From a virus (lineage: Duplodnaviria > Heunggongvirae > Uroviricota > Caudoviricetes), in IMG/VR virus record IMGVR_UViG_3300037454_000478, positions 58,449 through 122,448 of that record: a stretch of DNA of 64,000 bases. One strand, 5' to 3'. The translations under genes were made by a program, and so were the position numbers. This document shows positions 5,138-58,601 of the stretch, one piece after another (within the stretch, counting starts at the first letter, position 1; each line of letters begins with the position of its first letter). Below the pieces are notes generated by a model. That model was not told the origin of the DNA, did no database searches, and saw nothing but the letters and a program-made list of their open reading frames with translations.

Positions 5138-7633
5138 ATGGGAAATAGTGAACTTAAAACAACAATTGAAAAAACCATTAAACCAAATGGTAGAGGTGAG
5201 ATCACAGGAAGTAACCTACAATATGTTTTGAATGAAATGGTGGATGTATTGGGCGCCGGTTATATGTATCTTGGGGATGCTACTCCAATAACATCGCCGG
5301 GTACACCCGATAATAATGTTTGTTATTTAGCCATTGAAGAAGGTAGTTATACTTACTTTGATAATATTGTTGTATCTGAACCATCGATCCTTTACTTTGA
5401 TACACAATGGCATAGTAGAACTCTTAATGGTAATTTTTCAACCGTAATACGCGCGGCTGATATTATAAATAATCTAAATAGTTCTGCAACCGATAAGGTT
5501 TTAAGTGCTGCAATGGGTAAATCACTTGCAGATAGTATAAAAAACCTAATTGATGATTTAAAAAACGGCACCCTTATCCCAAAGAACTCCGAAAATATTG
5601 AATCTTGGGAAGGCAACAATCACCCCGTGGATAATGATTTTAACGATACAATACGTACAACTGCTGGCAACGATCCTATTGATACAGATGCCGGTGGTGT
5701 GCTTTTGGCCATTAAAGCATTAAGTGATTTCAAGTGTACTGGTTTATTGGCAACTGCAGAAAACCAATTACGTTTGAAAAGCGATGGTGGTGGAGCAGTT
5801 GCCGTGGGTACTGGCTGGTATTTTCCTGTGCCAAAATTGACATATGGTGCTTTTGGAACTGCCGATGAAAATAACGGATTAATTCTTGTCGCAAAAGATG
5901 GATCCAATATTCAGAATGCAACTGTTTATTTTAAAGCACTTGCTAATGGTGTACCTACTGGTGTTACTGATGGTGTTGTTGCTTCAAGTCAGAATGTAAC
6001 ATATAATGGTAATACTTATAAGGTCTATACAACAAACGGCCCTGGATATCTCATAGTAAGTGATGTCACGTATGCGGAGACATGCGCTCGTATTGCATGG
6101 GAAGATTGGTATGATAAATTTGTTGCCCCGGATGAACAAGATGATCTTGGTGGTAGTATCGATCTTGCAGCTTTATTTACAGCAGCTCCTAACGGAACAG
6201 GTAAATTTATCGTATGCGGTGGTTCGTCAACACATGCTGAACGCATCAGTGCAAGTCAATGGAGAATTACAGATCCTGTTGGAAGAATTTCTTCACCAGT
6301 ATGGACTGATACTCCGGATGAAGTAGAAGAAGGAGAAACACAAACATATACCCATACACTTAATATTGTTGGTATATCTAATAATGGTATAGCAATAATT
6401 GAAGGCAGCTCCCAATCGTTATCGATTAATGGTACTGTTGTGAGTTATACTGATACTAATGATACTGCTATCAGTGGTGCTGTTCGTTATGAGTTGGCTA
6501 CACCAGCTACTGCTACAGTAAATATCGCCAGTGAATATACACTTAATGATGTTGGTATAGAAATGAAGGAGGGTGCTGAAGGTGAAGCAATTTTTACATG
6601 TCAGTATTCCCAAAATATTGCAGATTCGTTGGCTCTTGGTGCTCCAAAACTTAATATTCTTCGTAGTAACGCAGCTGCAATTAGTCTTGGATATGGACTT
6701 TGTATAACAGGTACGTATGTAAAAGATAAGGTAGTAACTATTCCTGATTTTATGTTACTTCAAAATGGTACAATTAATGTACTTTTCACTACACCTATTA
6801 ATACTGAAAATTCAACACTTAATGTATCATTAACAGGAGCTAAACCATTACGTATTCTTGGACAAAATCTTCCGGCTGGTGTTGTTAAGGCACAATCATA
6901 CGTCACTCTTGCATATGATGGTGAAGCGTGGAATATTATTAATATATTCTGTCCGGATTCATCATTTGACCCTGCAAGCCTTGTCGTTGATATGGGATTA
7001 GCAAGTGGTACAAAATGGGCTGTTCGTGATATTGACCTTACTAAACCAGGAGGTTTCTGTGATACTCCGTTTGTATATGAGAAGACATTCTTTAGCTGGG
7101 GCAATATCGATGGATATAATCCAAAAAATAATTCGTTTGCCAACGTTCACAACTGGGGTTCTGTTAATGGATCTGAACCATGGTATGATGGTCAACCTTA
7201 TGGTAATACTAAAGGCAATACACTTACTGGTAATATTCCTGTAGGTGAGGAATTTGATGCTGCTCGTGCTAATCTTGGTGCTCCATGGAGAATGCCGACA
7301 AATACCGAGTTCGGAGAACTTTTTAACGGATGTATTTATATTGATGCCACAGGTACGGAGATTTCCGTAGGAACTACTGATAAGAGAGTTACTGTTAATG
7401 GTATTGTGGGATTATATCTCCAATCCAAAGCAAATGGTAATAGGTTGTTTTTCGCTTGCTCCGGTCGCGGCAATGGTACGTCTTGGAACGTCCGTGGTTC
7501 GTACGGTTTCTTCTGGTCTGCGTCATTCAACTCTGCCCGTTATGCAAGGGGCTTGTACTTCGACAGTGGAGGCGTTTCTCCGCAGTACTACTACAACCGG
7601 TACTACGGGTTCGCGTTGCGCCCGGTTCAGTAA
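5138..7633 (+). CDS. DGR target protein: receptor-binding / tail fibre-like protein with a C-terminal Fib_succ/C-type-lectin-like variable domain
   Basis: 831-aa ORF. The last ~61 codons (GRGNGTSWNVRGSYGFFWSASFNSARYARGLYFDSGGVSPQYYYNRYYGFALRPVQ) are the VR, matching a TR about 970 bp downstream. Confidence 0.85.
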   Translation: MGNSELKTTIEKTIKPNGRGEITGSNLQYVLNEMVDVLGAGYMYLGDATPITSPGTPDNNVCYLAIEEGSYTYFDNIVVSEPSILYFDTQWHSRTLNGNFSTVIRAADIINNLNSSATDKVLSAAMGKSLADSIKNLIDDLKNGTLIPKNSENIESWEGNNHPVDNDFNDTIRTTAGNDPIDTDAGGVLLAIKALSDFKCTGLLATAENQLRLKSDGGGAVAVGTGWYFPVPKLTYGAFGTADENNGLILVAKDGSNIQNATVYFKALANGVPTGVTDGVVASSQNVTYNGNTYKVYTTNGPGYLIVSDVTYAETCARIAWEDWYDKFVAPDEQDDLGGSIDLAALFTAAPNGTGKFIVCGGSSTHAERISASQWRITDPVGRISSPVWTDTPDEVEEGETQTYTHTLNIVGISNNGIAIIEGSSQSLSINGTVVSYTDTNDTAISGAVRYELATPATATVNIASEYTLNDVGIEMKEGAEGEAIFTCQYSQNIADSLALGAPKLNILRSNAAAISLGYGLCITGTYVKDKVVTIPDFMLLQNGTINVLFTTPINTENSTLNVSLTGAKPLRILGQNLPAGVVKAQSYVTLAYDGEAWNIINIFCPDSSFDPASLVVDMGLASGTKWAVRDIDLTKPGGFCDTPFVYEKTFFSWGNIDGYNPKNNSFANVHNWGSVNGSEPWYDGQPYGNTKGNTLTGNIPVGEEFDAARANLGAPWRMPTNTEFGELFNGCIYIDATGTEISVGTTDKRVTVNGIVGLYLQSKANGNRLFFACSGRGNGTSWNVRGSYGFFWSASFNSARYARGLYFDSGGVSPQYYYNRYYGFALRPVQ
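7447..7630 (+). repeat. DGR variable repeat (VR)
   Basis: 184-nt near-identity with 8419-8602. 21 of 22 mismatches fall where the TR has A, mostly TAC/TTC here against AAC in the TR. Confidence 0.9.
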
Positions 7634-7673
7634 TATCGTTTTACCAACGGATAAAATAAAAGGAGTGTACCAC

Positions 7674-7691
7674 AGATGCGCCCCAGCGCAT
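7674..7691 (+). other. GC-rich hairpin downstream of the VR (candidate DGR homing-enhancer stem-loop)
   Basis: GATGCGC-ccca-GCGCATC, a 7-bp stem with a 4-nt loop, 44 nt after the VR end. Confidence 0.5.
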
Positions 7692-7735
7692 CCCATGGTG
7701 CACCCCTTAATAAATTTCAACACAGGTATTAACAT

Positions 7736-8284
7736 ATGACAATAACGGAAATAAGAAAAATAGAAGAAGACCGTAAAGATACGCTTGATGTGGTACATCT
7801 TATTAAAGAAGGTAGTTTCTATCACGCTAACGATTGGAGTGCTTGGTTAATGTCGACATACCCTATAGGGGAGGCAGTTCACAAACCCATGGTTGTTACA
7901 GTAAAAAAGTTAAAGGATGATTATCTTCATGCTTTTGTTGGTTTCCCCACAACATCATTAGCTAAATATGTACCTAATGATGGTAGTGTTGAATTTCGCC
8001 CTATCAGCGATAATCAAATAGATGTTGTTCTTAATATAGATTTTGATCAATTAACTACGGATCAAATAAGACATATGGTGGATGAATGGAAAGAAAACTT
8101 ACCAATACGTGAAAATAAGAAGCAACATCGTGAAGATAAGGATATCATTAATGAAGCAACGCGCATTACCCGTATTAGCGATGTGGTTGTTAAAATCATC
8201 TCATTACCCATGGAGGATATATCACCTAAACAAGCGTATGATATTTTAAGGGACTTACGTAAACAAATTTCCGCTTTATTTTAA
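7736..8284 (+). CDS. putative DGR accessory protein (Avd-like by position only)
   Basis: The only ORF between the VR and the TR, which is the canonical avd position. At 182 aa it is longer than typical Avd, and I saw no motif. Confidence 0.4.
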   Translation: MTITEIRKIEEDRKDTLDVVHLIKEGSFYHANDWSAWLMSTYPIGEAVHKPMVVTVKKLKDDYLHAFVGFPTTSLAKYVPNDGSVEFRPISDNQIDVVLNIDFDQLTTDQIRHMVDEWKENLPIRENKKQHREDKDIINEATRITRISDVVVKIISLPMEDISPKQAYDILRDLRKQISALF

Positions 8285-8418
8285 TAAAATAGGATGACGG
8301 TTCAGAACGATATTCATAGGTCATGCGTCTTATCTTTTTAAAAGATGGGAAAAAGTAAAGACACCACTTGGCTTCCACATGGATTCTTTGAGGCGTTCGT
8401 AAAAGGATATGACCGATA

Positions 8419-8602
8419 GTTTTTCGCTTGCTCCGGTAACGGCAATGGAACGTCTTGGAACAACCGTGGTTCGAACGGTAACTACTGGTCTGCGACATTC
8501 AACTCTGCCCGTAATGCAAGGAACTTGAACTTCAACAGTGGAGGCGTTAATCCGCAGAACAACAACAACCGGTACAACGGGTTCGCGGTGCGCCCGGTTC
8601 AG
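8419..8602 (+). repeat. DGR template repeat (TR)
   Basis: Adenine-rich copy of the VR (AAC codons where the VR has TAC, TTC, GGC or CGC). Intergenic, immediately upstream of the reverse transcriptase. Confidence 0.9.
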
Positions 8603-8638
8603 CATACACTTCTAACAGTCATCCTTTTTTCTTTATAA

Positions 8639-9826
8639 ATGGTTTTAACACGGCAGCAATTACTTCTTGATCTTTATCAAGCATATTATGATGCAAAAAA
8701 ACATAAATCCAAACGTTCATATGTAAGGAAATGGGAATCCAACCTAAAACAGAACATGGATGATTTATGTGATGATCTTTATACACGTTGTTATAAACCA
8801 TTACCATCAAAATGTTTTATTGTAGATTATCCAAAGAAAAGGGAAATATTTGCTGCTGCATTTAGAGATAGAATTGTACATCATCTTTACTATAACTATA
8901 CTAACAAGTTATATCAGCACACGTTCATCCAAGACTCGTATTCCTGTATCAAAGGGCGTGGTACACATTATGGCATAAATCGTATTAATACATTTTGCCG
9001 TAAAGAAAGTCTTAACTGGCAACGGCCATGTTATGCTATGCATCTTGATATTAGAGGATATTTTATGCATATTGTCCGTAAAAGACTTCTTGAAATATCC
9101 ATCAATTCATTACATAAGATGGCAACCCATCGCATCAATAATCATTCCTCAAAAACCTGGAGTGATATTCTTGATATGGATTTCATTGAATGGTTAACTG
9201 AATTGATCATAATGATAGATCCAAAAGAAAATTGCATTATTTGTGGAGAACTTGAGGATTGGGATGATTTGGATCCGGCTAAATCATTATTATGGCTTGA
9301 AGATGGTCTTGGGTTACCGATTGGTAATCTTACTTCACAACTATTTTCCAATATTTATCTTAATATACTCGATCAATTTATGAAACGAGTATTAAAGTGT
9401 CATTATTATGGTCGTTATGTTGATGATGCTATAGTGGTAAGTTGTGATAAGGAATGGTTATTATCATTAGTGCCAAAGATAAAAAAGTTCCTTTGGGATG
9501 AGCTTCAACTCGAATTGCATCTTGGTAAACTTGAAATATCGGAAGTACATAAAGGTGTTGAAATACTTGGTGTGTATATAAAACCTTATCGTATATATGT
9601 TTCAAATCATTCGTTAAGAAAAATGGAAAAGAAAATATCCGAATTTGATTATTCAGATTATTCATCAGTATTAAGAAGTGTTAATAGTTATCTTGGAATA
9701 CTCCAGCATGTATCTTCATATAATTTACGCCGTAAACTATTTATGATTCAACCAATAATGAAAATATGTAATTTTAATACGGATATAACAAAAGCGATTG
9801 ATATAAGAAAATCATTGCGGTTTTAA
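8639..9826 (+). CDS. DGR-type reverse transcriptase
   Basis: FRDRIVHH, SYSCIKGRGTH, LPIGNLTSQLFSNIYLN (DGR-specific motif) and YGRYVDDAIVV (YxDD). Confidence 0.85.
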   Translation: MVLTRQQLLLDLYQAYYDAKKHKSKRSYVRKWESNLKQNMDDLCDDLYTRCYKPLPSKCFIVDYPKKREIFAAAFRDRIVHHLYYNYTNKLYQHTFIQDSYSCIKGRGTHYGINRINTFCRKESLNWQRPCYAMHLDIRGYFMHIVRKRLLEISINSLHKMATHRINNHSSKTWSDILDMDFIEWLTELIIMIDPKENCIICGELEDWDDLDPAKSLLWLEDGLGLPIGNLTSQLFSNIYLNILDQFMKRVLKCHYYGRYVDDAIVVSCDKEWLLSLVPKIKKFLWDELQLELHLGKLEISEVHKGVEILGVYIKPYRIYVSNHSLRKMEKKISEFDYSDYSSVLRSVNSYLGILQHVSSYNLRRKLFMIQPIMKICNFNTDITKAIDIRKSLRF

Positions 9827-13127: not shown

Positions 13128-13955
13128 ATGAAAAACATCGATCTTAACAGCCTAACAAAAGCCGAACTCATCCAAGGCATCATCAACCTGACAAATAAGT
13201 ATAACGAATGCATCAAGTCACGTGGCTTTTTGAACATTCACAAGGTTCCATCGGCCAACACGCTTCGTACAAAGTCCCGCGAAGTGGTCGAGGAGAGTTT
13301 TACCCATGCTTGGGATTGGCTCCGTGAGGAGATCCGCGCCTATTACAACGTACTGGATGTGGATGTCGACAAGCAGGCCATTGAGGATCTCAAGGCAAGA
13401 ATTGAAAAGGAGGTTGAGGAAAACTACAAGGCGTACCGAACCGGTACTGATAGTGGTATTGCGGAAATCACCGAACTTATCCATAATTACATCATCAACT
13501 GCGGTATTCTCAACGCATTCCCGGATATCAAACTCGAGGATGTCATCATCGTTTCCGTTTCGGATGAATGCGTGAGCATCAAACTGAATAAATGTTTTGG
13601 TGGTGAGATCAACTATTACCACCGTAACAGCAGGCTTTCGTCCATAACCGATAATGAAACCAAGAAGATCGATGAGATCAACTTTGGCACCATCGGTGCA
13701 TTCGACTTGGATTCCGAGCGTGGTCGTCAACAGCTTTTCCTGATGAATCTGTTGAGCCATATCGGTTGCAACCAGGAGATTCGTACCAAAATGAACGGAA
13801 TCCTCGAAGGTCTCCGTGACATGAACCTCACCCGTATCCGCACAAACCATAAACTTCAAGACAGTATGGTTGCCGGCATCGATGAGATTGTGGCCCCATA
13901 CATCAACAGCGTGGCCACTGGTGAGTTCCTGTGGAAGCCATCCAAGACCGAATAA
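13128..13955 (+). CDS. hypothetical protein (275 aa)
   Basis: ORF; the competing antisense ORF 13218..13961 has shadow-ORF composition. Confidence 0.65.
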   Translation: MKNIDLNSLTKAELIQGIINLTNKYNECIKSRGFLNIHKVPSANTLRTKSREVVEESFTHAWDWLREEIRAYYNVLDVDVDKQAIEDLKARIEKEVEENYKAYRTGTDSGIAEITELIHNYIINCGILNAFPDIKLEDVIIVSVSDECVSIKLNKCFGGEINYYHRNSRLSSITDNETKKIDEINFGTIGAFDLDSERGRQQLFLMNLLSHIGCNQEIRTKMNGILEGLRDMNLTRIRTNHKLQDSMVAGIDEIVAPYINSVATGEFLWKPSKTE

Positions 13956-13973
13956 ATTCAAATTTTGCGCGGT

Positions 13974-14055
13974 TTTATGCGATTTAACGGCCGTTTGAGC
14001 TTACCCCCGAATAACTATATAGGGGATGATGAAATGGCCGTTAAATCGCGTTTTT
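13974..14055. repeat. structured intergenic element, copy A (long imperfect palindrome with conserved inner loop)
   Basis: Arms TATGCGATTTAACGGCCGTTT and AAATGGCCGTTAAATCGCG enclose the loop CCCCCGAATAACTATATAGGGG. Confidence 0.7.
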
Positions 14056-14073
14056 GAATACATATATTATTAC
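14040..14073 (+). promoter_or_regulatory. promoter variant GTTAAA-N15-ATATATTATTA
   Basis: ATG at 14090. Confidence 0.45.
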
Positions 14074-14339: not shown

Positions 14340-15200
14340 ATGAATGATCAATTACATATAGTTGCATTAAGTGATACCCATGGTAGGCTAAAGACCACAT
14401 ACATCCCCAAATGCGATGTTGTCACGATATCCGGCGACTTTTCTGCTTTAAGGAATGATCGTCAGGTGGCGTATAATGGACCATTATGCAACTGGATTGT
14501 CAACAAATTTATCCCATGGCTTGTGAGTTTGCCTTGTGAAAGGGTCATATTTATCCCGGGGAACCATGATTTTATCACGGAGCAAGGATGGTTTGAACAA
14601 TGGTTCAATGAGAAACTCAAGGCCTTGGATGAATACTACCTTGGCGCCGGTGAAGACAATAAGCCATCCAAAAAGATTGTGTATTTGTGTTACAATACCT
14701 ATGAATATAAAGGTTACACATTTTACGGATGCCCGGCGACAGATATGATGAGGTGGGCATGGCCTTCCAACAACGACTATACCAAATACAAAGCACCTTC
14801 GGGTACAGACATTATGTTAGTCCATCAGGCGCCGGATTGGATGGAATTAGGTACATCCCATTTCAATGACGGATATGCGGAGAATTTTGGCAGCAATTTA
14901 CTCCTCAATGCATTGGCTGATAACCCAAAGGATCTTCCAAAGTTGCTTCTTTGTGGTCACATTCATTCCGGCAACCACCTACCTATCATATACGATTTGA
15001 TGGATGAGGATGGGAAGAAGCACTCCTGCATGATGGCCAACGTATCGACCAAAAACGAAAGTTATGCGGAGTATTTCCATTGTAGAAATTTTGTATTGAT
15101 ACCGGTCGATGATCAAACCTATATTGAAACTTGGGTATCCCCAAGGGAAGGCCCGAGCGAAATTGAGGAATATAATCGCCGAGAACGTTTCATCCTCTAA
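14340..15200 (+). CDS. calcineurin-like metallophosphoesterase
   Basis: ALSDTHG, ISGD, IPGNHD and GHIH motifs. Confidence 0.7.
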   Translation: MNDQLHIVALSDTHGRLKTTYIPKCDVVTISGDFSALRNDRQVAYNGPLCNWIVNKFIPWLVSLPCERVIFIPGNHDFITEQGWFEQWFNEKLKALDEYYLGAGEDNKPSKKIVYLCYNTYEYKGYTFYGCPATDMMRWAWPSNNDYTKYKAPSGTDIMLVHQAPDWMELGTSHFNDGYAENFGSNLLLNALADNPKDLPKLLLCGHIHSGNHLPIIYDLMDEDGKKHSCMMANVSTKNESYAEYFHCRNFVLIPVDDQTYIETWVSPREGPSEIEEYNRRERFIL

Positions 15201-15250
15201 AAAATGATTGCAAATTACATATTTTATTAACAGAAATAAATTCAAACAGC

Positions 15251-15946
15251 ATGAATAGGACAATTGAAAACATTCAAAAGAACATGAAAACCGTTTTTGA
15301 AGGCTACGTTAATGGCCAAAAATTCACGAACCGTGAGTTAATGAACGCATATATCGGTAAGTGCATTTCCGAGGGTTTGCCTATCACCGATCTTTCGTAC
15401 TCAACAACCACCCAGTACAAGGAACCTGCCCCTGAAAACCGTCAATTCGACAACCGTCCCGGCCGTGACGCCATCCGTCAAGCCCAAAAGGAAATCAGTT
15501 GGGTCACCTACACCAACAACCTCAACCAGCGCGTTCCAAAACCATACGACAACGTCATTGGTTACGTGGTACCTTTCGTCCGTGAGGAAATCACCATCAA
15601 CGAGTCAAACGCCGAGTTTATCATCAACGACTTCAGGGCCCGCCTTAACGACCGCTTGGCATTCCTTGAGAATTATGTGTTCTCACAGATCCGTACATGG
15701 AAGTATGATGAGAATCAGGTCAACCAGTGGCTCGATCTCCTCACCAGTTCATTCCAACACAAGCTTGAGTGGGCCAACAACCGCGTCACCCTTATCGAGA
15801 ATTTCTTGAATGATGGTGATCCGTTCATCACTTCACATATCGATCAAACGGCACTTCGTGGTTTCCATGAGATCTACGCCGAAACCGCCGGATTCTGCAG
15901 TGCAGTCATTGACATCATTGCAGAACTCAAGTGCGACCTGCAGTAA
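15251..15946 (+). CDS. hypothetical protein (231 aa)
   Basis: ORF followed by a terminator. Confidence 0.6.
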   Translation: MNRTIENIQKNMKTVFEGYVNGQKFTNRELMNAYIGKCISEGLPITDLSYSTTTQYKEPAPENRQFDNRPGRDAIRQAQKEISWVTYTNNLNQRVPKPYDNVIGYVVPFVREEITINESNAEFIINDFRARLNDRLAFLENYVFSQIRTWKYDENQVNQWLDLLTSSFQHKLEWANNRVTLIENFLNDGDPFITSHIDQTALRGFHEIYAETAGFCSAVIDIIAELKCDLQ

Positions 15947-15965
15947 TCTCCGGGATATACGATCC

Positions 15966-15993
15966 GATACAAAACCCGCCGCGGCGGGTTTTT
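15966..15993 (+). terminator. rho-independent terminator
   Basis: AAACCCGCCG-CGGCGGGTTT stem followed by a T7 run. Confidence 0.75.
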
Positions 15994-16076
15994 TTATGCC
16001 TTTATGGTCTCAAAAATTACGACTACCAAGGAAAAAAACGTACAAAAAACCATATATTTATAAAAGTATTAAATGT

Positions 16077-17108
16077 ATGAAGCACGATAAGCAATGGAAT
16101 CCATCGGAGCATCATAACAAAGGATACGCTCCATATCAAAGGCATAAACTTAAAGCATCAAATTGGGTAACCCCGGAAGAAGCCGCAATGATTAGCAAAC
16201 GCTGCAATAAATGGCGTCATAATGGTATTTGGGGACGCGAGCCGGATTGGAATCTTGAAAGGAAACTCATAAATAAGTATGTTGATAAACCATACGATGT
16301 GTTTATCAAAGCATGGCATGAGAGAACCAAACAACTTCGCAAACAAGGTGTACTTTTGGAATTAAGATGTATCAAGCCAACATTGACGGATAGCCCCTCC
16401 ACTTGGGATGAATTTTATGTGGATACGGAAGGCATTATCCGTAAAAACGATAATTATAGATGGAGGTTCAATAGAAACAAAAAACCCATTAAAGTAGTAG
16501 AAAAAGAAGTGGTCAAATATCATCTTGACGATAAGATTTATAGTAAGAATTGGTGTACGCCAACGCCATTTCATATGATTCTTTCCATTTTGAGCCATTA
16601 TCTTTCCGTAACGGATTATAACGACATTCTTGATGGTGGTATCTCCAAGGAGAAATTCGACCGACTTGTTCAAAGTTCAATGCACAGCGGAATTAACTAT
16701 GCAATTGATAAGTTTGCCCGTAATCACAACAAGGAGTTAGGTAAAAACAACCCACGGTTTTACATGGGATCACCGGGATACTGTAGATACGATTGTTTTA
16801 ATGACTTATTTGTTGCGGATTATAGTGAATCCGTATATAGATACATATATCCGGGAACGCCGGAATATTCACAAATCGTTGCCGAGAGGAATGATGCTTC
16901 CAATAAAGCCCGCCGTGAATACAAAAAGCAAATGGATGATTACCGGGCTGGTCTTTTGCATAATATCGAGGCAAACCGTAAGGCCAAGGAGGATGAGATA
17001 AACCGCCAAAAAATCATCAAGCACGGCTTTGACGAAAACGAATCTTTCCGCGGGGAGGAATATCATGGCAAAAAACATAAAAGACGCAAGATGGCCATCG
17101 ATGCCTGA
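16077..17108 (+). CDS. hypothetical basic protein (343 aa)
   Basis: The ORF 15810.. is trimmed to the first ATG after the terminator. Confidence 0.55.
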   Translation: MKHDKQWNPSEHHNKGYAPYQRHKLKASNWVTPEEAAMISKRCNKWRHNGIWGREPDWNLERKLINKYVDKPYDVFIKAWHERTKQLRKQGVLLELRCIKPTLTDSPSTWDEFYVDTEGIIRKNDNYRWRFNRNKKPIKVVEKEVVKYHLDDKIYSKNWCTPTPFHMILSILSHYLSVTDYNDILDGGISKEKFDRLVQSSMHSGINYAIDKFARNHNKELGKNNPRFYMGSPGYCRYDCFNDLFVADYSESVYRYIYPGTPEYSQIVAERNDASNKARREYKKQMDDYRAGLLHNIEANRKAKEDEINRQKIIKHGFDENESFRGEEYHGKKHKRRKMAIDA

Positions 17109-17109
17109 T

Positions 17110-17140
17110 GTTAAGATTTGACCTGTTTTTGTTATATATA
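17110..17140 (+). promoter_or_regulatory. conserved phage promoter
   Basis: gttaag at 17110-15 and gttatatata at 17131-40; ATG at 17166. Confidence 0.55.
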
Positions 17141-17165
17141 CATGTAAATTATAAAATACCTGAAT

Positions 17166-17348
17166 ATGAATATCGGATTGGAAATACTATCGCTTGTATG
17201 CATTGCAATAGCGCTGGTGTACAACATATTCCACACGGTGGATATGATAGATTTAAAGCGATACACAAAGTGGAATACGCTGTGGGCGCTTGTAATCACC
17301 TGTTGCCTTGCGATAGCATTTGCAATTGGCATATGTAAACTCTTTTAA
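17166..17348 (+). CDS. small membrane protein (60 aa)
   Basis: Hydrophobic ORF after a promoter box. Confidence 0.4.
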   Translation: MNIGLEILSLVCIAIALVYNIFHTVDMIDLKRYTKWNTLWALVITCCLAIAFAIGICKLF

Positions 17349-17359
17349 CAATTAAGACC

Positions 17360-18613
17360 ATGAATAACGCAAATGAAATGATTTTTCCGGGAAACCTCAA
17401 GGTTTTCGCACAGACTGTCGAGCAGGAGGTATACGGCCAGCTATATCGTTTGTTGAGCTTGGATGCCTTCCGTGACGCAAAGATCCGTATCATGCCGGAT
17501 ACCCATGCCGGTATGGGTTGCGTGATTGGATTCACTGCCGCCTTGGGCGATAAGGTTGTCCCTAACCTCGTTGGGGTGGACATCGGATGCGGTATGTTCG
17601 TCCAAAACCTTGGACAAATAGACATTGATCTTCCGGCACTGGATAAATTTATCCGTGAGCATATTCCGTCCGGAAGCGGAGTCAATGAAATACAAGGAAC
17701 CCGCGTTGAATTTCCGGAGCTGAAAGATATGCGGATGTACAAGAGCCTCCGTAATATCGATCACTTACAGTCTTCGATTGGTTCCTTGGGTGGCGGAAAC
17801 CACTTCATTGAACTTGACCGCGACTCGAATGGTAACGTATACCTTGTTATCCATACGGGAAGCCGTAACCTTGGACAGCAGGTGTGTAAGCACTATCAAA
17901 AACTCGCTGTGGATCAATGCAATAAGCACTCTGCGGATATCAAGCGTGAGATCAATTCCGCCATCGAGCAGCTCAAGGCGGAAGGCCGTCAAAAGGAATC
18001 ATCGCGAGTTATCTCGGAAATCAAGGCAAAATACGGACGTATTGATAAGGTTCCGGCGGATTTGTGTTACCTTACCGGTGAACTCCGTGACGACTACCTC
18101 CACGATATGAAGATTTGTCAGGAGTTTGCCCGCCGTAACCGCGAGGAAATCGCCCACCGTATCTTCCGTCACATCAAATGGAGTGGCAAGTGGGGATTCC
18201 ACACCATCCACAATTACATCGATTTCACGGATAAGATCATCCGTAAGGGTGCTATCCGTTGTAATCAGGGTGAGATGGTCATTATCCCGTTGAATATGCG
18301 TGACGGATCGATCCTTGCCATTGGTAAAGGTAACGAGGATTGGAACTTTTCCGGCCCTCATGGCGCTGGTCGTTTGATGTCCCGTTCCGCTGCCAAGGAG
18401 TCAATCTCAATGAAAGACTTTAGGGCTTCGATGGAAGGTATCTACACCACATCGGTCAACAAAAACACCTTGGACGAATCCCCGATGGCATACAAAAACG
18501 CCAACGAAATCGTGGAGGCCATTCGAGATACTGTTGATGTAATTGAGGTGATCAAGCCCATTTACAACTTCAAGGCCAGTGAGACTGATGAGGATTATAA
18601 CCGCCAAAAATAA
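17360..18613 (+). CDS. rtcB: RtcB-family RNA ligase (joins 3'-phosphate to 5'-OH)
   Basis: MPDTHAGMGC, GGGNHFIEL and HNYI motifs, with RtcB-typical length. Confidence 0.85.
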   Translation: MNNANEMIFPGNLKVFAQTVEQEVYGQLYRLLSLDAFRDAKIRIMPDTHAGMGCVIGFTAALGDKVVPNLVGVDIGCGMFVQNLGQIDIDLPALDKFIREHIPSGSGVNEIQGTRVEFPELKDMRMYKSLRNIDHLQSSIGSLGGGNHFIELDRDSNGNVYLVIHTGSRNLGQQVCKHYQKLAVDQCNKHSADIKREINSAIEQLKAEGRQKESSRVISEIKAKYGRIDKVPADLCYLTGELRDDYLHDMKICQEFARRNREEIAHRIFRHIKWSGKWGFHTIHNYIDFTDKIIRKGAIRCNQGEMVIIPLNMRDGSILAIGKGNEDWNFSGPHGAGRLMSRSAAKESISMKDFRASMEGIYTTSVNKNTLDESPMAYKNANEIVEAIRDTVDVIEVIKPIYNFKASETDEDYNRQK

Positions 18614-24212: not shown

Positions 24213-26525
24213 ATGCCCGATAATCTACATAAGTCCGAGGTGGTAAATGAACTCGTCACCGGATATATGGCGAGTATACGTAATCGCGATATCATCGTTA
24301 TAAAACGTAGTGGTACCAAAGCTAACTACGACCTCGATAAAATCCGTAGGGCAATCCGCCAGTGTTTCAAACGATGCCATGTTCGCTACCGCGTGGAATT
24401 GCTCGAAAAAATTGATAATGAAATCAAACATGCAATTGCCGTAAAGATGGTGGATTATTCCACACATCCACCGTATCCGGAAGAGGTGCGTACCATTAAG
24501 GTGGAGGACATTCAGGATATCGTTGAAAAAACCTTGATGGATAGCCAGCCGGAATGCGCAAAGGAGTACATTCTTTACCGCAACCATCGTGAACAAGTCC
24601 GTTCGTGGGTGGATTCAAAGGAGGATTTCATCCGCAAATATAAAGAAGCAGCCAACACGGCTAACGCAACGATTGATGATAACTCCAACGTAACCAACAA
24701 AAACATCGGTATCCTTAATACGGAAATCCACAAGGAGGACAACATTCAGATCTCCCGCCGTATGGTGGTTCGTAAACTCCGTAAGATATTCCCGGATTTC
24801 GATGCAAAACAGTATGAACGTGATCTCGCCGACCATATCATATACAAGCACGATGAAAGTTCGTTTGCAGGCGCTGTGGCACCTTATTGTGTTGCACTAA
24901 CCATGTATCCGTTCCTTGATGGTGGTATCAAAGGTATCGGTGGTCTTTCAGCAAAACCAAAGAATCTTGATTCGTATTGTGGTATGTTGGTCAATATGAT
25001 CTTCGCTATCTCCGCCCAGTTTGCCGGAGCAGTTGCCTGCCCGGAGGCTCTTTTGTACTTCGATTATTTCGCCCGTAAGGAGTGGGGTGATGATTATTAC
25101 CTCCACCCGGACGACATCGTCAATCCTCGTTCGAAACATCCACGAACAATCCGTGAACAAATCCATCAGCATTTCCAACAGGTGATTTATTCAATCAATC
25201 AACCGGCTGCGGCTCGTGGACTTCAAAGCGCCTTTGTCAATTTCTCATATTATGATAAGGCGTTTTATGACGGGATGTTTGGAAACTTCGCATTTCCGGA
25301 TTTCACGCAACCAATTTGGGAGAGTTTTAACTGGTTACAAAAGGATTTCATGCAATGGTTCAATAACGAACGCAAACGCTGTGTCCTTACGTTCCCGGTG
25401 GAATCATTTGCCATGGTGTATCAGGATCACAAGTTCCTCGACCCGGAAAGCGCCGATTTTGTGGCGGAAGAATATGCCCGTGGACACTCCTTCTTTACGT
25501 ATATTTCCGACACGGTGGACAGCCTTTCCAGTTGCTGCCGTTTGAAAAACAAACTCCAAACCAAGGAGTTCAACTTCACTAACGGTAATATGGGTCTTCA
25601 AACCGGATCCAAGTCGGTTATCACGATTAACCTCAACCGTATTATTCAGGATTGGGCCCGCGTAAATGGCCATATCATTATCCCATCCGGATTCTCCAAG
25701 GAGGCACAGGATAGTTTCATCAAATACCTTGGTGATATCCTTGACCGTATCTATAAATACCACACTGCGTATAACGAGCTTCTTTGGGATATGAAGGACG
25801 CCCATCTCCTCCCGGTATACGATGCCGGTTTCATCGATCTCAACAAACAATACCTCACGATTGGTATCAATGGTCTCAACCAAGCAGCCGAGTTTATCGG
25901 ATATACCTGTAATGACAACGAACAATACAAACATTTCTGTCAATTGATCTTTGGTGCCATCGCTGCCAAAAACAAGGATGCCGGTAAGGAGAAGTTCAAT
26001 GGTCATACACTTACGTTCAACACGGAGCAGGTACCGGCTGAATCCTTGGCCATTAAGAACTATAACTGGGATAAGGAGGATGACTATTGGGTTCCCGAAG
26101 ACACCAACCTTTATGCAAGTTACATTTTCAAACCAAATGATCCGACCACGGATATCTTTGAGAAACTCCGTCTCCATGGCCGTGAATACATCGGGGATTA
26201 TCTTGATGGTGGATCTGCCGCACATATCAACCTCGAGGAACACCTCACCAAGGATCAATACAAGAATATCATCAAGTATGCCGCCGAACAAGGTACCAAT
26301 TACTTCACCTTCAATATCCCAATGTCGGAGTGTTGTGATTGTGGACATATTGTAAACGGCCCGATTGAGGAGTGTCCGGAATGTCATAGCCATAACATTA
26401 AGTACTGGACTCGTATTATCGGATACCTCACTGCGGTGAAATCGTGGTCTGCTGGCCGTCAGGAGGAGTTCAAACACCGTATTTTCCACACTATGGAAAA
26501 GGATAAATTCCGTACGATGGAATAA
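24213..26525 (+). CDS. nrdD: anaerobic ribonucleoside-triphosphate reductase NrdD (class III ribonucleotide reductase)
   Basis: N-terminal ATP-cone (VIKRSGTKANYDLDKIRRAI). C-terminal Zn ribbon CCDCGH...CPECH. Glycyl-radical motif RIIGYLTAV near the C-terminus. Length 770 aa. Confidence 0.85.
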   Translation: MPDNLHKSEVVNELVTGYMASIRNRDIIVIKRSGTKANYDLDKIRRAIRQCFKRCHVRYRVELLEKIDNEIKHAIAVKMVDYSTHPPYPEEVRTIKVEDIQDIVEKTLMDSQPECAKEYILYRNHREQVRSWVDSKEDFIRKYKEAANTANATIDDNSNVTNKNIGILNTEIHKEDNIQISRRMVVRKLRKIFPDFDAKQYERDLADHIIYKHDESSFAGAVAPYCVALTMYPFLDGGIKGIGGLSAKPKNLDSYCGMLVNMIFAISAQFAGAVACPEALLYFDYFARKEWGDDYYLHPDDIVNPRSKHPRTIREQIHQHFQQVIYSINQPAAARGLQSAFVNFSYYDKAFYDGMFGNFAFPDFTQPIWESFNWLQKDFMQWFNNERKRCVLTFPVESFAMVYQDHKFLDPESADFVAEEYARGHSFFTYISDTVDSLSSCCRLKNKLQTKEFNFTNGNMGLQTGSKSVITINLNRIIQDWARVNGHIIIPSGFSKEAQDSFIKYLGDILDRIYKYHTAYNELLWDMKDAHLLPVYDAGFIDLNKQYLTIGINGLNQAAEFIGYTCNDNEQYKHFCQLIFGAIAAKNKDAGKEKFNGHTLTFNTEQVPAESLAIKNYNWDKEDDYWVPEDTNLYASYIFKPNDPTTDIFEKLRLHGREYIGDYLDGGSAAHINLEEHLTKDQYKNIIKYAAEQGTNYFTFNIPMSECCDCGHIVNGPIEECPECHSHNIKYWTRIIGYLTAVKSWSAGRQEEFKHRIFHTMEKDKFRTME

Positions 26526-26548
26526 CCAATAACAATCCAATACAAAAA

Positions 26549-26581
26549 ACCGGCGGTCGTTAAGATTTCGCCGGTTTTTGT
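26549..26581 (+). terminator. rho-independent terminator overlapping a promoter
   Basis: AAACCGGCG-gtcgttaagatttc-GCCGGTTTTT. Confidence 0.7.
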
Positions 26582-26590
26582 TTATATATA
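26559..26590 (+). promoter_or_regulatory. conserved phage promoter
   Basis: gttaag at 26559-64 and tttatatata at 26581-90; ATG at 26611. Confidence 0.5.
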
Positions 26591-28249: not shown

Positions 28250-28290
28250 CCTTTTTATTTCGTAAATCCTTTCCTTTTTGAAGCCCATTT

Positions 28291-28322
28291 GTTAAGTTAC
28301 AGATGGGTTTCTTTATATATAA
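28291..28322 (+). promoter_or_regulatory. conserved phage promoter
   Basis: gttaag at 28291-96 and tttatatata at 28313-22; ATG at 28340. Confidence 0.6.
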
Positions 28323-28339
28323 CCATAAAATTTATACAT

Positions 28340-29869
28340 ATGAGAGCACAATTAGACAATCAATGCGTTTTGAGGATCCGCCGGGAAATCTTACAACCGG
28401 TTGCTGAATCTGAAGGTATTCAAGCTTGGATGGTTGGCGGATGTGTCCGCGACCTGATGCATCACGAAGGGATCAACGACATCGATGTGATATGCACCGA
28501 TGCCAGTAAATTCGTTAAAGCCCTGGATGAATACTTTACAGAGAATAATATTGGCCATTCGATTCACTCGATGGCAAATGGCCACGCCACGGTGATTTCC
28601 GTCAAAACCAAACCGATTTTTGGAGAATTTTTAATTCTTCCGTCTCAATTCGACATCGAAGTCTCCCAGCTCGATTACCTTGATAAACTTACGCCGGAGG
28701 AGGCCATCAAACAAGATGCAGGTTCACGTGATTTTATCTGTAACGCATGGTATATCAGCGTATCCGGCATTGACAAACCATTCACTCCGTTAACCAACGA
28801 GTCGATCGTTTACGATGCCGCCGGCAAGTATATCCATCCGTGCAATAAAAGCGCCACATTTTTTGATAGTCCCTTGCGCGTATTCCGTGCGATGGATCTC
28901 ATGTGCCGTGGATATAAGCCGACCATCGGCCTTGTCCGTGCACTGGATGATTATTTGCAAAACGGTATCAACAAAAAGGCTCACATTAATGCCTACTTAC
29001 AGGTAATCCACAAGATTTTCAGCCGGTTGGCGGATGGTGAGTACGATGTGAATAATGTGATCTATGCATTCAACTATTTTGCGGATCTTTGCGCATGGGG
29101 CAAGATGATCCACCCGGTATTCGAAGGTATGAAATATTGCATGCACAAAAATGATTACCACCATGATTCCGTGTGGCAACATACCATGAATGTGATATAT
29201 AATATGTCACGTTACCGCGTTCTTGACGAGCACGATTTCCCGATCAAGACAAATGCGTACGATTATTGGGCAGCTCTCCTTCATGACGCCGGTAAAACCA
29301 CCACGATTTCATATGATTTTGATGGTAATACCCATTTTTACGATCATCAATGTTCATCGGTGAATATCGCCAAGGAAATTTTGAAGGAAAGCCCCTTGAA
29401 CCGGGTGTGGTCGGAGTTTGTGCTCGAACTCATTGCCCATCACATGGATACCAAGGTTTTTGGTGACGAACCGATTAAGTACCACCAATACAAGCACATC
29501 CGTAAATTACAGTGGGAACTTGGTGCCATGGGTTTCCATCACTTCCTGATACTCAATCACGCCGATTGTGCTGCCAGTGAGCGTTCCGAGAACAAAAACA
29601 CCATCAATATAGTACGTGCCGTCAAGGATATGGCATATAACTGCGGTGAATCCGCGTGGGAATGCTACAAGATTCCGGTTAGCGGAAGTGACATCACGGA
29701 GGCATTTCCGGATGAACCCGGCATAAACATTGGCAAGTACATCAAACAACTTTATAAGGTCACATTCTCCCGGCCGGACGATTACAAGACCAAGGAGCAG
29801 TGCCTCCATTATGTCCGTACTCTTATAAAGACCGGATGGGCCAATAAAGCACGTAAGGAAACAAAATAA
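28340..29869 (+). CDS. tRNA nucleotidyltransferase (CCA-adding enzyme / poly(A) polymerase family) with HD domain
   Basis: WMVGGCVRDLMH...DIDV (Pol-beta nucleotidyltransferase GGxVRD motif). ALLHDAGK and HHMD (HD domain). The ATG after the promoter box is preferred over the TTG at 28289. Confidence 0.7.
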   Translation: MRAQLDNQCVLRIRREILQPVAESEGIQAWMVGGCVRDLMHHEGINDIDVICTDASKFVKALDEYFTENNIGHSIHSMANGHATVISVKTKPIFGEFLILPSQFDIEVSQLDYLDKLTPEEAIKQDAGSRDFICNAWYISVSGIDKPFTPLTNESIVYDAAGKYIHPCNKSATFFDSPLRVFRAMDLMCRGYKPTIGLVRALDDYLQNGINKKAHINAYLQVIHKIFSRLADGEYDVNNVIYAFNYFADLCAWGKMIHPVFEGMKYCMHKNDYHHDSVWQHTMNVIYNMSRYRVLDEHDFPIKTNAYDYWAALLHDAGKTTTISYDFDGNTHFYDHQCSSVNIAKEILKESPLNRVWSEFVLELIAHHMDTKVFGDEPIKYHQYKHIRKLQWELGAMGFHHFLILNHADCAASERSENKNTINIVRAVKDMAYNCGESAWECYKIPVSGSDITEAFPDEPGINIGKYIKQLYKVTFSRPDDYKTKEQCLHYVRTLIKTGWANKARKETK

Positions 29870-34219: not shown

Positions 34220-34300
34220 GGTTTATTTGCGCTATAATCGCATTTCTCAATTACCCAATATAGTTATGAGGGGGAAACATAAAAACGCGTTAAATCAAAG
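34220..34300. repeat. structured intergenic element, copy D (degenerate)
   Basis: TTTATTTGCGCTATAATCGCA...CCCAATATAGTTATGAGGGGG...AAAAACGCGTTAAATC. Confidence 0.45.
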
Positions 34301-44152: not shown

Positions 44153-44917
44153 ATGAAACGATTAGATCGTAAGGTAAGTATCTATGATACTGATACCCTT
44201 GAACCCATTGGCGATTACAAAGAAGGCCAAGTGGGTATCATGAAAGAAAATGAAATGGTGCTCGACTTCCGTTCGTATTGGCCAACTTGGTTGATATTCA
44301 TATCCCTTGTGATTGGTTTATGTGTTGTGAGCTGGAAAGTTTCCGATGAATATTGCGCGGCATTACACAAAATCAATCAACTCGAGGCGGAAAATTCCCA
44401 ACTCAAATCCCACATCGAGGTAACCGAACACGAGCTGAATGTGGAGATCCTTGCAGGTAAATATGCCACATTACGTACACCGGCACCTACGGATATGAAT
44501 GAGGTATATAAGATGTGTATCCAATCCGGTGCATGGTACCCGGAAATCATCATGGCCCAATACATCATTGAATCCGGATCGGGTACATCCCAAGTGGCAT
44601 CAAATGCCCGGAATTTTTACGGCATGAAGTATATTGGCACCAAGGGTCGACCAACCCTACAAATTCCGCATATGAATGTCAATGGGTATGGTATGTACCT
44701 TAATTGGCAACATTCGGTTCTCGATAGGGTTTTATGGGACGACTACGTGTTTAACAAGACCAAACCAACCCGGGAGCAATACCTTGTCAAGATCAGGAAC
44801 ATATACGCCGAGGATCCGAATTACATTTGTAAAGTCCTTTCCATCGCCAACGAATGGGCTGCTAAAACCGATTCGATCCGTATGGTAGTAAACCAAGATA
44901 GTCTGCTCATCCAATAA
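44153..44917 (+). CDS. peptidoglycan hydrolase (GH73 N-acetylglucosaminidase domain) with N-terminal TM and coiled coil: candidate endolysin
   Basis: AQYIIESGSGTSQVASNARNFYGMKY matches the FlgJ/AcmA glucosaminidase motif AQAxLESGWG..NNLFGIK. TM segment WPTWLIFISLVIGLCVVSW. Confidence 0.7.
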   Translation: MKRLDRKVSIYDTDTLEPIGDYKEGQVGIMKENEMVLDFRSYWPTWLIFISLVIGLCVVSWKVSDEYCAALHKINQLEAENSQLKSHIEVTEHELNVEILAGKYATLRTPAPTDMNEVYKMCIQSGAWYPEIIMAQYIIESGSGTSQVASNARNFYGMKYIGTKGRPTLQIPHMNVNGYGMYLNWQHSVLDRVLWDDYVFNKTKPTREQYLVKIRNIYAEDPNYICKVLSIANEWAAKTDSIRMVVNQDSLLIQ

Positions 44918-44929
44918 ATCGCAATAAAC

Positions 44930-45018
44930 CGCGTTTTTATGCGATATAAAAGGAGATCTCCCCCGCCCCTATATAGTTATTCGGGACAGAGGAGATCTCC
45001 TTTTATATGCGAATTTTT
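44930..45018. repeat. structured intergenic element, copy B
   Basis: Perfect 20-bp inverted repeat GCGATATAAAAGGAGATCTCC / GGAGATCTCCTTTTATATGCGA flanking the loop CCCCTATATAGTTATTCGGG. Confidence 0.75.
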
Positions 45019-45025
45019 GAGGTTC

Positions 45026-57921: not shown

Positions 57922-58440
57922 ATGGATCGAAAAGAATACCTCAAATCATTAAACCAACCGGCCCCGGAATCCGCGGAATTTGACAATAAGCATCATCCGG
58001 TATTCCTATCGTTGGCCGAGTACCTCGCCGCACGCCGTAAATGCGCGGAATACGAGGAATCCGAAAACATTTCCGACCAATTGACGGCCGAGGACTATCG
58101 CTTGTTCGATAAGAACTTCGAAAATGCCCTTCACGATGCCCTGTACAAGGACAACGATTTCGACAAGGACGAGATCGAACGTACAATCCAAATGATGAAG
58201 TCCGTTGGTTGGACTTGGGCACATGGCCTTACCGATAACCGTAAGCCATCAACACCCAATTGTAAGGAATTTATCGATACCATCAGGTACTGCTACGAGA
58301 GTTGCTTTAACAACGGCTCTGCACATGGCTTCTGCGCTACCGGTGGAATCTCCGTGGAAATCGATATTTTGGATCACTTTGTGAAGATCCAATTCAGCAG
58401 CATCGATGTCTTTGCATTTGATGGTGACGATAGCCACTAA
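57922..58440 (+). CDS. hypothetical protein (172 aa)
   Basis: ORF. Confidence 0.5.
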   Translation: MDRKEYLKSLNQPAPESAEFDNKHHPVFLSLAEYLAARRKCAEYEESENISDQLTAEDYRLFDKNFENALHDALYKDNDFDKDEIERTIQMMKSVGWTWAHGLTDNRKPSTPNCKEFIDTIRYCYESCFNNGSAHGFCATGGISVEIDILDHFVKIQFSSIDVFAFDGDDSH

Positions 58441-58454
58441 AAATCGATTTTAAC

Positions 58455-58545
58455 CGCATTTATTTGCGATATAACAAGAGATCCCATTTGCCCTGATAAA
58501 CTATGAAGGGTAAATGGGATCTCCTTTTATATGCGATTTTTTGGG
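58455..58545. repeat. structured intergenic element, copy C
   Basis: TTTGCGATATAACAAGAGATCCCATTT / AAATGGGATCTCCTTTTATATGCGA arms with the loop CCCTGATAAACTATGAAGGG. Confidence 0.7.
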
Positions 58546-58552
58546 TATAAAA

Positions 58553-58581
58553 AAAGAACCCCCGGAGAGGTTCTTTTCTTA
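58553..58581. terminator. bidirectional rho-independent terminator between convergent genes
   Basis: AAAAAAGAACC-cccggaga-GGTTCTTTTCTT. Confidence 0.7.
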
Positions 58582-58601
58582 TATTTACCAACTTGGATGA
58601 A

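Follow-up and report, generated by a model that had tools for sequence, protein, structure and literature searches.

Repeated composite cassettes that join a terminator to a promoter, the PeSL and PmSL elements, have been described in T4-type phages and implicated in the shuffling of genome modules (Arbiol et al. 2010, PMC2839356; Comeau et al. 2014, PMC4122927). A PeSL is defined as a short stem-loop that has a sigma70-like early promoter, a Shine-Dalgarno sequence and the start of a gene directly downstream, and these cassettes cluster in hyperplastic regions (PMC2839356, PMC4122927). They are the closest described system to the family of intergenic hairpins analyzed here, which occupies four sites, named A, B, C and D in positional order, in a 64,000-nt stretch of phage DNA (IMG/VR record IMGVR_UViG_3300037454_000478, positions 58,449 to 122,448; hereafter the window). 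Among the regulatory cassettes of T4-type phages, we know of none described with a conserved loop, a complete turnover of the stem and a loop that inverts within its own hairpin.

Typical intrinsic terminators have stems of 5-14 bp and loops of 3-8 nt, the sequence of which is unconstrained. Repetitive extragenic palindromic (REP) sequences and bacterial interspersed mosaic elements (BIMEs) have proposed roles in termination, mRNA stability and the binding of DNA proteins (gyrase, IHF); REPs are chromosomal, occur in the hundreds, measure 20-40 nt, have a conserved 5' GTAG and are mobilised by RAYT transposases. The boxB hairpin has a 5-nt loop on a 5-bp stem and lies downstream of promoters in a fixed orientation relative to transcription. 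The hairpins of parvovirus inverted terminal repeats (ITRs) and poxvirus telomeres are terminal and flip via hairpin-primed replication.

The four window copies, together with about 15 others that related metagenomic phages carry and that include orthologues of sites A, B, C and D, have covarying stems and a sequence-conserved loop that is found in both orientations within its hairpin. The account that we regard as probable is that these elements are long bidirectional intrinsic terminators at module boundaries, whose tip and left module would be recognized by a putative factor independently of orientation.

A family of long hairpins

The 19-mer core CCCGAATAACTATATAGGG occurs exactly at 14006-14024 (+ strand) and 44967-44985 (- strand) and with three mismatches at 34254-34272 (- strand), which marks copies A, C and B, respectively; 0.01 matches are expected by chance in the window, and none of 100 shuffles gave three. 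In copy D the core has diverged to CCCTGATAAACTATGAAGGG (58491-58510). When run over the window, a covariance model made from 14 family copies matches these four sites and nothing else (Table 1). Each copy starts about 5-20 nt past a stop codon, and the only two convergent gene junctions of the window are the sites of C and D. The original prediction, made from the letters of the window, had placed four copies at these positions, right after stop codons and with two at convergent junctions, all of which was borne out; the flank motifs that it quoted also proved correct on reading the sequences.

The anatomy of the element could be read from an alignment of all copies. A stop codon, usually within AATAAA, is followed by the left module TTTTGCGCGGTTTAT..GCGAT or variants of it, which can form a small G+C hairpin, and by a TATAA/TTTAA box. 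The outer arm, commonly TATAACAAGAGATC, and a variable inner stem of 6-8 bp lead to the tip, where a CCC(C) clamp and a GGG(G) clamp enclose a loop of 13 nt that is rich in A+T and has TAGTTAT as its core (read as ATAACTA from the opposite strand). The 3' part consists of the pairing strands of inner stem and outer arm, a TTATA/TTAAA box, GCGA (or GAGGAGA) and a T-run. Stems often contain GATC; a special role for this tetranucleotide was rejected, as it is common in the window (290 sites, observed/expected 0.78). A small peptide starting at the ATG of the ATGCGAT flank was likewise discarded, since the reading frame is unconserved and copy D has no ATG there.

Copies A, C and D are the longest hairpins of the 64 kb, with lengths of 20-28 bp (stems of 20-22 at no more than two mismatches). 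Their folding z-scores against shuffles on the two strands are -5.0 and -4.6 for A, -6.6 and -8.7 for C and -7.9 and -7.0 for D, and lie between -4.6 and -12.8 on both strands across the copies with a hairpin. Copy B does not fold above shuffles (Table 1) and is a decayed copy, the hairpin of which is intact in the orthologue L018 (13795-13875). The description of all four elements as structured thus holds for A, C and D and fails for B, whose arms are unpaired.

On either strand, an A-rich stretch lies before the G+C-rich stem and a U-rich one after it: the + strand reads GGAGATCTCC-TTTTATAT-GCGA-TTTTT and the - strand ...GATCTC(T/C)TGTTATAT. As judged from its sequence, this A-rich, stem, U-rich order on both strands is the predicted design of a bidirectional intrinsic terminator.

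Table 1. Copies of the hairpin family in the window, with their parts, and the terminator adjoining copy D. Bits are covariance-model scores, z is the folding score against shuffles on the two strands, and F and R denote loop orientation.
Feature	Position	Strand	Remarks
Copy A, whole element	13953..14056	+	co-directional, + genes on either side; 47.9 bits; orthologues L036, L038, L039, L040, L041
Copy A, stop codon TAA	13953-13955		
Copy A, left module TTTTGCGCGGTTTTATGCGA	13963-13982		followed by TTTAA box, hairpin and TTAAATCGC
Copy A, hairpin, outer arms GCGATTTAACGGCCGTTT / AAATGGCCGTTAAATCGC	13979..14049	.	compensatory changes vs L036, L038, L040, L041
Copy A, inner segments of hairpin	13997-14003, 14026-14031		unpaired
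Copy A, core	14004..14025	+	clamp CCCCC, 13-nt loop GAATAACTATATA (14009-14021), clamp GGGG; F
Copy A, T-run	14051-14055		
Copy B, decayed	34222..34296	+	z +0.73 and -0.39; 60 bits; intact orthologue in L018
Copy B, left module TTTATTTGCGCTATAA	34222-34237		arms unpaired
Copy B, core CCC-AATATAGTTATGA-GGGGG	34254-34274		R
Copy B, right box TTAAATC	34290-34296		
Copy C, whole element	44915..45019	+	convergent junction; 90 bits; orthologues L017 1540-1620, L016 1366-1445; strain variant L007
Copy C, stop codon TAA	44915-44917		
Copy C, left module ATCGCAATAAACCGCGTTTTTATGCGA	44918-44944		followed by hairpin
Copy C, hairpin ATATAAAAGGAGATCTCCCCCG / CAGAGGAGATCTCCTTTTATAT	44944..45008	.	5' side A-rich and 3' side U-rich on both strands
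Copy C, core CCCC-TATATAGTTATTC-GGG	44966..44985	-	R on + strand; F form on - strand
Copy C, GCGA and T-run	45009-45018		
Copy D, whole element	58438..58543	+	convergent junction; 71.6 bits; orthologues L017 16963-17043, L016 13940-14019; strain variants L010, L012
Copy D, stop codon TAA	58438-58440		
Copy D, left module AAAATCGATTTTAACCGCATTTATTTGCGA	58441-58469		followed by hairpin
Copy D, hairpin ATATAACAAGAGATCCCATTTG / TAAATGGGATCTCCTTTTATAT	58469..58532	.	
Copy D, core CCC-TGATAAACTATGAA-GGG	58491..58510	+	F, diverged
Copy D, GCGA and T-run	58533-58542		
Ordinary short terminator AAAAAAAGAACCCC cgga GAGGTTCTTTTCTT	58546..58583	-	directly after copy D, serves the converging - gene; not a member of the family

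Copies in related phages

Scans with the exact core and the flank pattern found copies on IMGVR_UViG_3300037454_000475 (L001, L002 and L003) and two copies on Ga0310786_10007519 (L005, copies L005a and L005b). Neither contig has genes in common with the window; both may be other parts of the same or a similar genome, since the same metagenome holds a window-type contig, L012. Protein-guided searches, in which the queries that worked were the family-B DNA polymerase (PolB) and the 511-aa protein, led to the relatives L014-L017, with PolB 68-86% identical, and to L018 and L036-L041 as relatives of the A/B region. Single-protein queries with three flanking or nearby window proteins recovered no related loci. 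In these relatives, the covariance model detected orthologues of sites C and D in L016 and L017, of site B in L018 and of site A in L036, L038, L039, L040 and L041. The most distant PolB relative, L015 (68%), has a single weak and diverged copy, and the same search found no copy in L019 or L020.

The position at convergent junctions recurs beyond the window. An element lies at both of the window's convergent junctions and at the orthologous ones in L016 and L017, and three of the five copies on the other contigs are placed in the same way; at C, D, L001, L002 and L005a the neighbouring gene converges on the element, and no gene start lies downstream. A common neighbouring gene was sought and rejected, as the genes that converge on C, L001 and L005a are unrelated. 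The arrangement of copy D next to a short terminator is retained in L016.

Outside this group the element was not seen. A search for the core in related phages and hosts, which the original prediction had called for, gave the copies in relatives described above and no match in 185,579 bacterial and archaeal genomes (exact-core scan). Megablast and blastn searches of 50,697 isolate phage genomes with the window and the element gave no match. Rfam 15 gave none at gathering thresholds over the window and, under relaxed conditions, only generic long-hairpin miRNA models (at most 31 bits vs thresholds of 54-171). The arm pattern TATAACAARRGATC..GATCYYYT had 16 matches in IMG/VR, two of them family members and the rest chance occurrences in coding sequence, so that within IMG/VR the conserved arm pattern is confined to this clade.

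These data bear on the earlier suggestion of a repeat resembling a miniature inverted-repeat transposable element (MITE) or a REP, which would spread through the phage and possibly the host genome. Such a repeat would agree with the several palindromic extragenic copies in both orientations, with the ATGCGA that flanks some copies on both sides and with one whole-element inversion in place, in L039. The idea is largely refuted and can hardly be upheld: the copies occupy the same syntenic sites in diverged relatives, none of which shows an empty site where synteny is the same, the core is absent from the bacterial genome collection, and only this clade has the arm pattern. The arms, moreover, are not shared; they differ between copies and yet stay complementary, the opposite of shared terminal repeats that decay independently. 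The flanking ATGCGA is part of the conserved module and not a target-site duplication, and no transposase family was matched by Pfam among 75 open reading frames (ORFs) of the window. The family is best read, from these sequence comparisons, as clade-specific and vertically inherited, with orthologues at A, B, C and D.

Selection on stem and loop

Pairing in the stems is maintained. In the inner stem of 12 distinct copies, 7 of 14 pairs show compensatory changes and 88% of cells are paired; none of 500 shuffles reached the observed values, and slid controls were 35-55% paired. Among the five site-A orthologues, compensatory changes affect 11 of 24 pairs, and the shuffles matched the paired fraction, the compensatory counts and the covariation score in 0 of 500 cases and the additional pair types in 24 of 500. 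The original prediction had proposed covariance analysis as a check; the stems indeed covary, and the loop cores are nonetheless conserved in relatives.

The loop and the flanks are constrained in sequence. Mean pairwise identity of the 7-nt loop core is 0.84 over all pairs and 0.83 between clades, that of the whole 13-nt loop 0.69 and 0.65, and that of the left and right strands of the inner stem 0.52 and 0.51 over all pairs and 0.49 and 0.43 between clades. The claim that the loop is conserved beyond what stem pairing explains is therefore strengthened by the relatives (0.83 vs about 0.5 identity). Site A provides the clearest view: L040 and L041 have CCCCCGAATAACTA in the loop as in the window, though the neighbouring proteins are only 42-86% identical, and the arms have been wholly replaced, by AACGGCCGTTCTC/GAGAACGGCCGTT in one relative and CAAAACTCAGGTG/CACCTGAGTTTTG in another. 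The arms of L040 and L041 are unrelated in sequence and both perfectly paired. L036, which shares 93% identity with the window across 15 kb, differs from it at six positions of the element. All six lie in the stem, and the loop and about 100 nt of flanking sequence are unchanged; two of the six together convert a C-G pair into T-A, and one makes a G-C pair out of G.T.

An alternative is that the elements are plain terminators and that the likeness of their loops, which would be functionless, stems from shared descent and recombinational homogenisation, a concerted evolution of the kind proposed for PeSL cassettes. T4-like phages do recombine at short homologies (PMC2839356, PMC4122927). The stem and loop of C, L001, L005a and L002 are about 90% identical, from which some copies appear to be recently duplicated or converted, and a module swap at the element separates L014 from L017. 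We nevertheless consider this alternative very unlikely. A, L040 and L041 have the same core on arms unrelated to those of C or L001 or to each other, and conversion of just 14-21 nt without flanking homology is implausible; between clades, the loop surpasses the stems in conservation (0.83 vs 0.43-0.49), and the six substitutions between L036 and the window spare the loop and flanks. Because copies with a common core differ in the adjacent stems, conversion between copies does not explain the constraint on the loop.

Loop orientation and inversion

Loop orientation is defined by the core relative to the left module and is called F or R; the left flank TTTAT(G/T)..GCGAT, which serves as reference, lies on the + strand in all four window copies. 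It had been claimed that the core runs one way in A and C and the other way in B and D, which is wrong: A and D read GAATAACTATATA, and B and C its reverse complement. At site A the loop is F in the window and, in place, in L036, L038, L040 and L041, and it is also F in L039, where the whole element is turned round. Site B is R in the window and in L018. At site C the window and L017 are R and L016 is F, and at site D the window and L016 are F and L017 is R. The arm asymmetry of copy D (ACAAGAG vs CTCCTTTT) is that of L001 and L005a despite the flipped core; these mismatches were kept while the core was inverted, and the tip alone has flipped. Flips are found only between clearly diverged lineages and none was seen among strains at least 99% identical, which points to an evolutionary process rather than a fast switch.

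These observations are relevant for a hairpin acting at the RNA level, of the nut/boxB kind or as an RNase III processing or stability element. A phage protein would bind the loop of the nascent RNA and either modify RNA polymerase, so that read-through at module boundaries is regulated, or direct the cleavage or protection of the 3' end. A conserved, G-C-clamped loop on a stem that covaries is the classic mark of RNA hairpins bound by proteins, stems of at least 20 bp suffice as RNase III substrates, and the loop orientation on the sense strand of site A is the same in five of six lineages. A conserved promoter-like TTGAAT-N17-TAAAYY follows copy A, and the conserved module before the hairpin recalls boxA before boxB in the lambda nut sites. 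However, at co-directional sites the sense transcript has an F loop at A and L003 and an R loop at B, L018, L005b and L039, and the loop flips between orthologues at sites C and D. Nut sites, in addition, lie downstream of promoters and not at gene ends. Sense-strand G.U pairs are not in excess over A.C mispairs: the G.T vs A.C counts are 10 vs 19 at co-directional and 13 vs 12 at convergent sites, in a crude test in which bulges were not handled. The two loop orientations and the lack of mispair bias argue against a single RNA-binding protein that reads one loop on the sense transcript, and we judge an RNA-level element unlikely. The earlier view that the elements are more than terminators is upheld as regards the conserved loop and weakened as regards a dedicated structured RNA. 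Orientation and mispair data favour a strand-agnostic reading of the loop.

In the L007 strain, which is 98.9% identical, the stem of copy C has substitutions at window positions 44962 and 44988 (in the window, T to C and G to A). In the + strand RNA each change breaks pairing, and in the - strand RNA each gives a G.U wobble; with n=2, they are uninterpretable.

The orientation data can also be accommodated by a site at the DNA level, where an extruded hairpin or cruciform, or bound duplex, would have its loop recognised or nicked by a phage enzyme and termination would be secondary. Candidate roles would be the initiation of replication or recombination, priming at the exposed GTT, a topoisomerase/gyrase site at convergent junctions (as for REP/BIME) or a roadblock protein. 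The non-palindromic loop is conserved in either orientation and flips inside fixed arms, the mispairs lack an RNA-type strand bias, and the A+T-rich loop on a G+C clamp resembles rolling-circle origin hairpins. L017-type loops GTAGTTATAC, set against the circovirus/nanovirus sequence TAGTATTAC, provide a lead and no test. The form of the loop is compatible with a rolling-circle origin; no Rep/HUH family was found in the window, itself only part of the genome, nor any recombinase, integrase or resolvase family among the 75 ORFs scanned. Support may also be seen in L014 and L017, which lose similarity exactly at the left edge of the site-C hairpin: they are 99.7% identical to its right, 95% identical through it and unrelated to its left. 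The site-C element thus marks a module exchange point, though breakpoints of this kind are expected at intergenic module boundaries anyway. A DNA-only site, finally, has no need of A- and U-tract flanks or of a position after stop codons, and we find it quite unlikely.

The exchange at site C concerns two genomes that are 99.7% identical over 21 kb and differ left of the hairpin (L014 1-1780 vs L017 1-1790). On that side, L017 has a lysin-like gene and the left module, and L014 an unrelated 225-aa gene with a short terminator of its own. The converging gene contains tandem repeats of about 112 bp and is 258 vs 508 aa long.

Two further candidates were tried for the element and dropped. A resemblance to XerCD/dif (TGCGCATAA ... 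GTTAAAT) was rejected because the arms are about 50 bp apart and not 6-8 bp. The core UAGUUAU is similar to the T4 RegA operator UUGUUAU; no RegA family was found in the window.

A proposed function

Under the account that we favour, the elements would separate blocks of genes from one another in this group of distant T4-like phages. Entering from one direction or the other, RNA polymerase would transcribe a 20-28 bp G+C-cored stem, bracketed by the A-rich 5' flank ATATAA(A/C)A and the U-rich 3' flank UUUUAUAU or UUGUUAUAU, and then GCGA-UUUUU. Hairpin and U-tract would free the transcript, preventing read-through between co-directional units and collisions at convergent junctions. The tip (CCC/GGG clamp, 13-nt loop, TAGTTAT/ATAACTA) and the left module would be under sequence-specific purifying selection. 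The loop would work either way round, in line with its repeated flipping inside unchanged arms, and would most likely be read strand-agnostically by a putative factor, in duplex DNA, in an extruded DNA hairpin or in whichever transcript carries it. The flips would be the expected product of recombination or template switching between the inverted arms.

Several points weigh against this account. Termination at these hairpins is predicted from sequence alone. A 13-nt loop and stems of 20-28 bp are atypical of intrinsic terminators, and the same genome has ordinary short terminators with loops of 4-8 nt, one of which adjoins copy D. A scan with a consensus terminator, which considers loops of 3-8 nt only, does not call the elements. 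No candidate for a loop-binding protein emerged either: among the 75 window ORFs, most of which are without a family, Pfam matched nothing of the HUH nuclease, recombinase, antiterminator or RegA-like kinds, and the window covers only part of the genome.

A protein recognition site, one of the candidates first put forward, seems reasonable in view of the loop that is conserved at site A on replaced arms. More specifically, the tip may be a dedicated site for a clade-specific phage factor at module boundaries, either an on/off switch for the terminators during the infection cycle or a DNA-hairpin site for replication, recombination or topoisomerase at convergent junctions; we put this forward tentatively, as possible rather than likely. 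The strand, or the one of two converging transcripts, on which the site is presented would then depend on the flip of the loop. T4-like phages have long been suspected to extend early transcripts past terminators without a known antiterminator.

If a factor reads the loop, the element would open a way to study how T4-like phages of a large uncultured group, from anaerobic habitats, divide their genomes into transcription units or mark their DNA. It would then also serve as a compact natural part that combines strong termination in both directions with a recognition tip that can be separated from it. Should the loop be without function, the family would still show cleanly, in a natural phage genome, how stems covary and how a palindrome mediates the inversion of its loop. 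Annotation of these phages can make use of the covariance model.

Genome context and other features

The window PolB is about 25% identical to T4 gp43, and its nearest isolate matches are in T4-like phages that infect Flavobacterium and Tenacibaculum. Also encoded are a baseplate wedge protein and an anaerobic ribonucleotide reductase, and Pfam matches on window ORFs include RtcB, CCA-adding enzyme, QueC, gp30.3, Tad3 and Lar. PolB, baseplate, anaerobic reductase and other genes indicate a distant T4-like myovirus from an anaerobic habitat. In the relative L041, an 881-aa protein (14395-17040) has a CHU_C (type 9 secretion sorting) domain and faint PKD matches; from the CHU_C domain, the host of the clade is probably a member of the Bacteroidota. 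A tRNA scan found no tRNA genes in the window.

The motif TGTTAA-N18-TATATA(TA), with fixed spacing, occurs in nine + strand copies (12832, 17109, 21685, 23114, 28290, 30124, 38298, 43780 and 57045), each 20-45 nt upstream of a + strand start codon, and in a variant at 26559. It is a probable phage promoter class, to judge from these positions. Several copies overlap a short terminator hairpin, and the spacer then consists of the descending arm and T-run of that hairpin (for example 26542-26582, 28280-28311, 38284-38314 and 43757-43786), and a copy also follows the element in L003. With the short hairpins, they read as terminator-promoter cassettes of the PeSL kind and fit the PeSL description better than does the conserved-loop hairpin family. 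A promoter within the hairpin loop was considered, as TATATAG resembles the -10 box of the TGTTAA-N18-TATATATA family; it was rejected because relatives keep TAGTTAT and not TATATA and because the implied direction would be antisense at A, C and D.

A diversity-generating retroelement spans 5138-9826. Its variable repeat (7447-7630) lies at the 3' end of the gene for an 831-aa tail-fibre-repeat protein (5138-7633) and is 88% identical to the template repeat (8419-8602), with 21 of 22 mismatches at template adenines. Just past the variable repeat, at about 7673-7690, lies the G+C hairpin GATGCGC-CCCA-GCGCATC. The reverse transcriptase (8639-9826, RVT_1) is kept in L036 and L039.

RNA-repair genes at 14340-18613 and 28289-29869 encode a metallophosphatase, an RtcB ligase and a CCA-adding/poly(A)-polymerase-head protein with an HD domain. 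AAA_28 and QueC matches fall on ORFs before 34218, in the first half of the window, and the anti-defence matches are Tad3 and Lar (the latter at 57497-57742). The anaerobic ribonucleotide reductase gene of the window (24213-26525) corresponds to intein-bearing regions in L038 (19543-20822) and L039 (17906-20822). Intein_splicing was matched in the 1178-aa and 1559-aa products, with a faint sub-threshold LAGLIDADG_3 match in the 1559-aa product only; Pfam found no intein match in the 770-aa NrdD of the window. The tetranucleotide CTAG is absent from the window, against 29 occurrences expected from trinucleotide frequencies, and other 4-bp palindromes are near expectation. This absence may result from restriction avoidance or mutational bias.

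Comparison with known systems

The asymmetric tip within a palindrome and its two inverted configurations recall the flip/flop hairpins of parvovirus ITRs and poxvirus telomeres. The present elements are internal, in contrast, and strains at least 99% identical show no flip. With the lambda nut site (boxA and boxB) they have in common a linear module followed by a hairpin with a G-C-closed, conserved loop on a variable stem; they differ in that the loop occurs in both orientations and at gene ends and that the hairpin itself is terminator-like. Like REP/BIME, they are repeated extragenic palindromes after stop codons or at convergent junctions, in both orientations. Here, however, perhaps ten copies per genome (extrapolated from four in 64 kb) reside at orthologous sites in a phage of lytic type, and no RAYT was seen by Pfam among the 75 window ORFs.

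The likeness to PeSL cassettes is closer. Both are intergenic cassettes that recur within T4-like genomes, are specific to a clade, have a terminator stem-loop at their centre and vary in consensus by lineage. In one case, at site C, an element of the present family lies where close relatives have exchanged modules (L014 vs L017), and a promoter-like TTGAAT-N17-TAAAYY follows the hairpin at the co-directional site A only. Most of the present copies, on the other hand, lie at convergent junctions without a downstream gene and thus lack the promoter and gene start that define a PeSL. Their stems are 20-28 bp long, their sites are otherwise positionally stable, and the conserved part is the loop with the upstream module, not a promoter.

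Bidirectional intrinsic terminators share with this family the symmetry of A-tract, G+C stem and U-tract, the location after stop codons and at convergent junctions, and the covarying stems. The family departs from them in its 20-28 bp stems, in a conserved module of 20-25 nt that precedes the hairpin, and in a 13-nt loop that is the most conserved part of the element (core 0.83).

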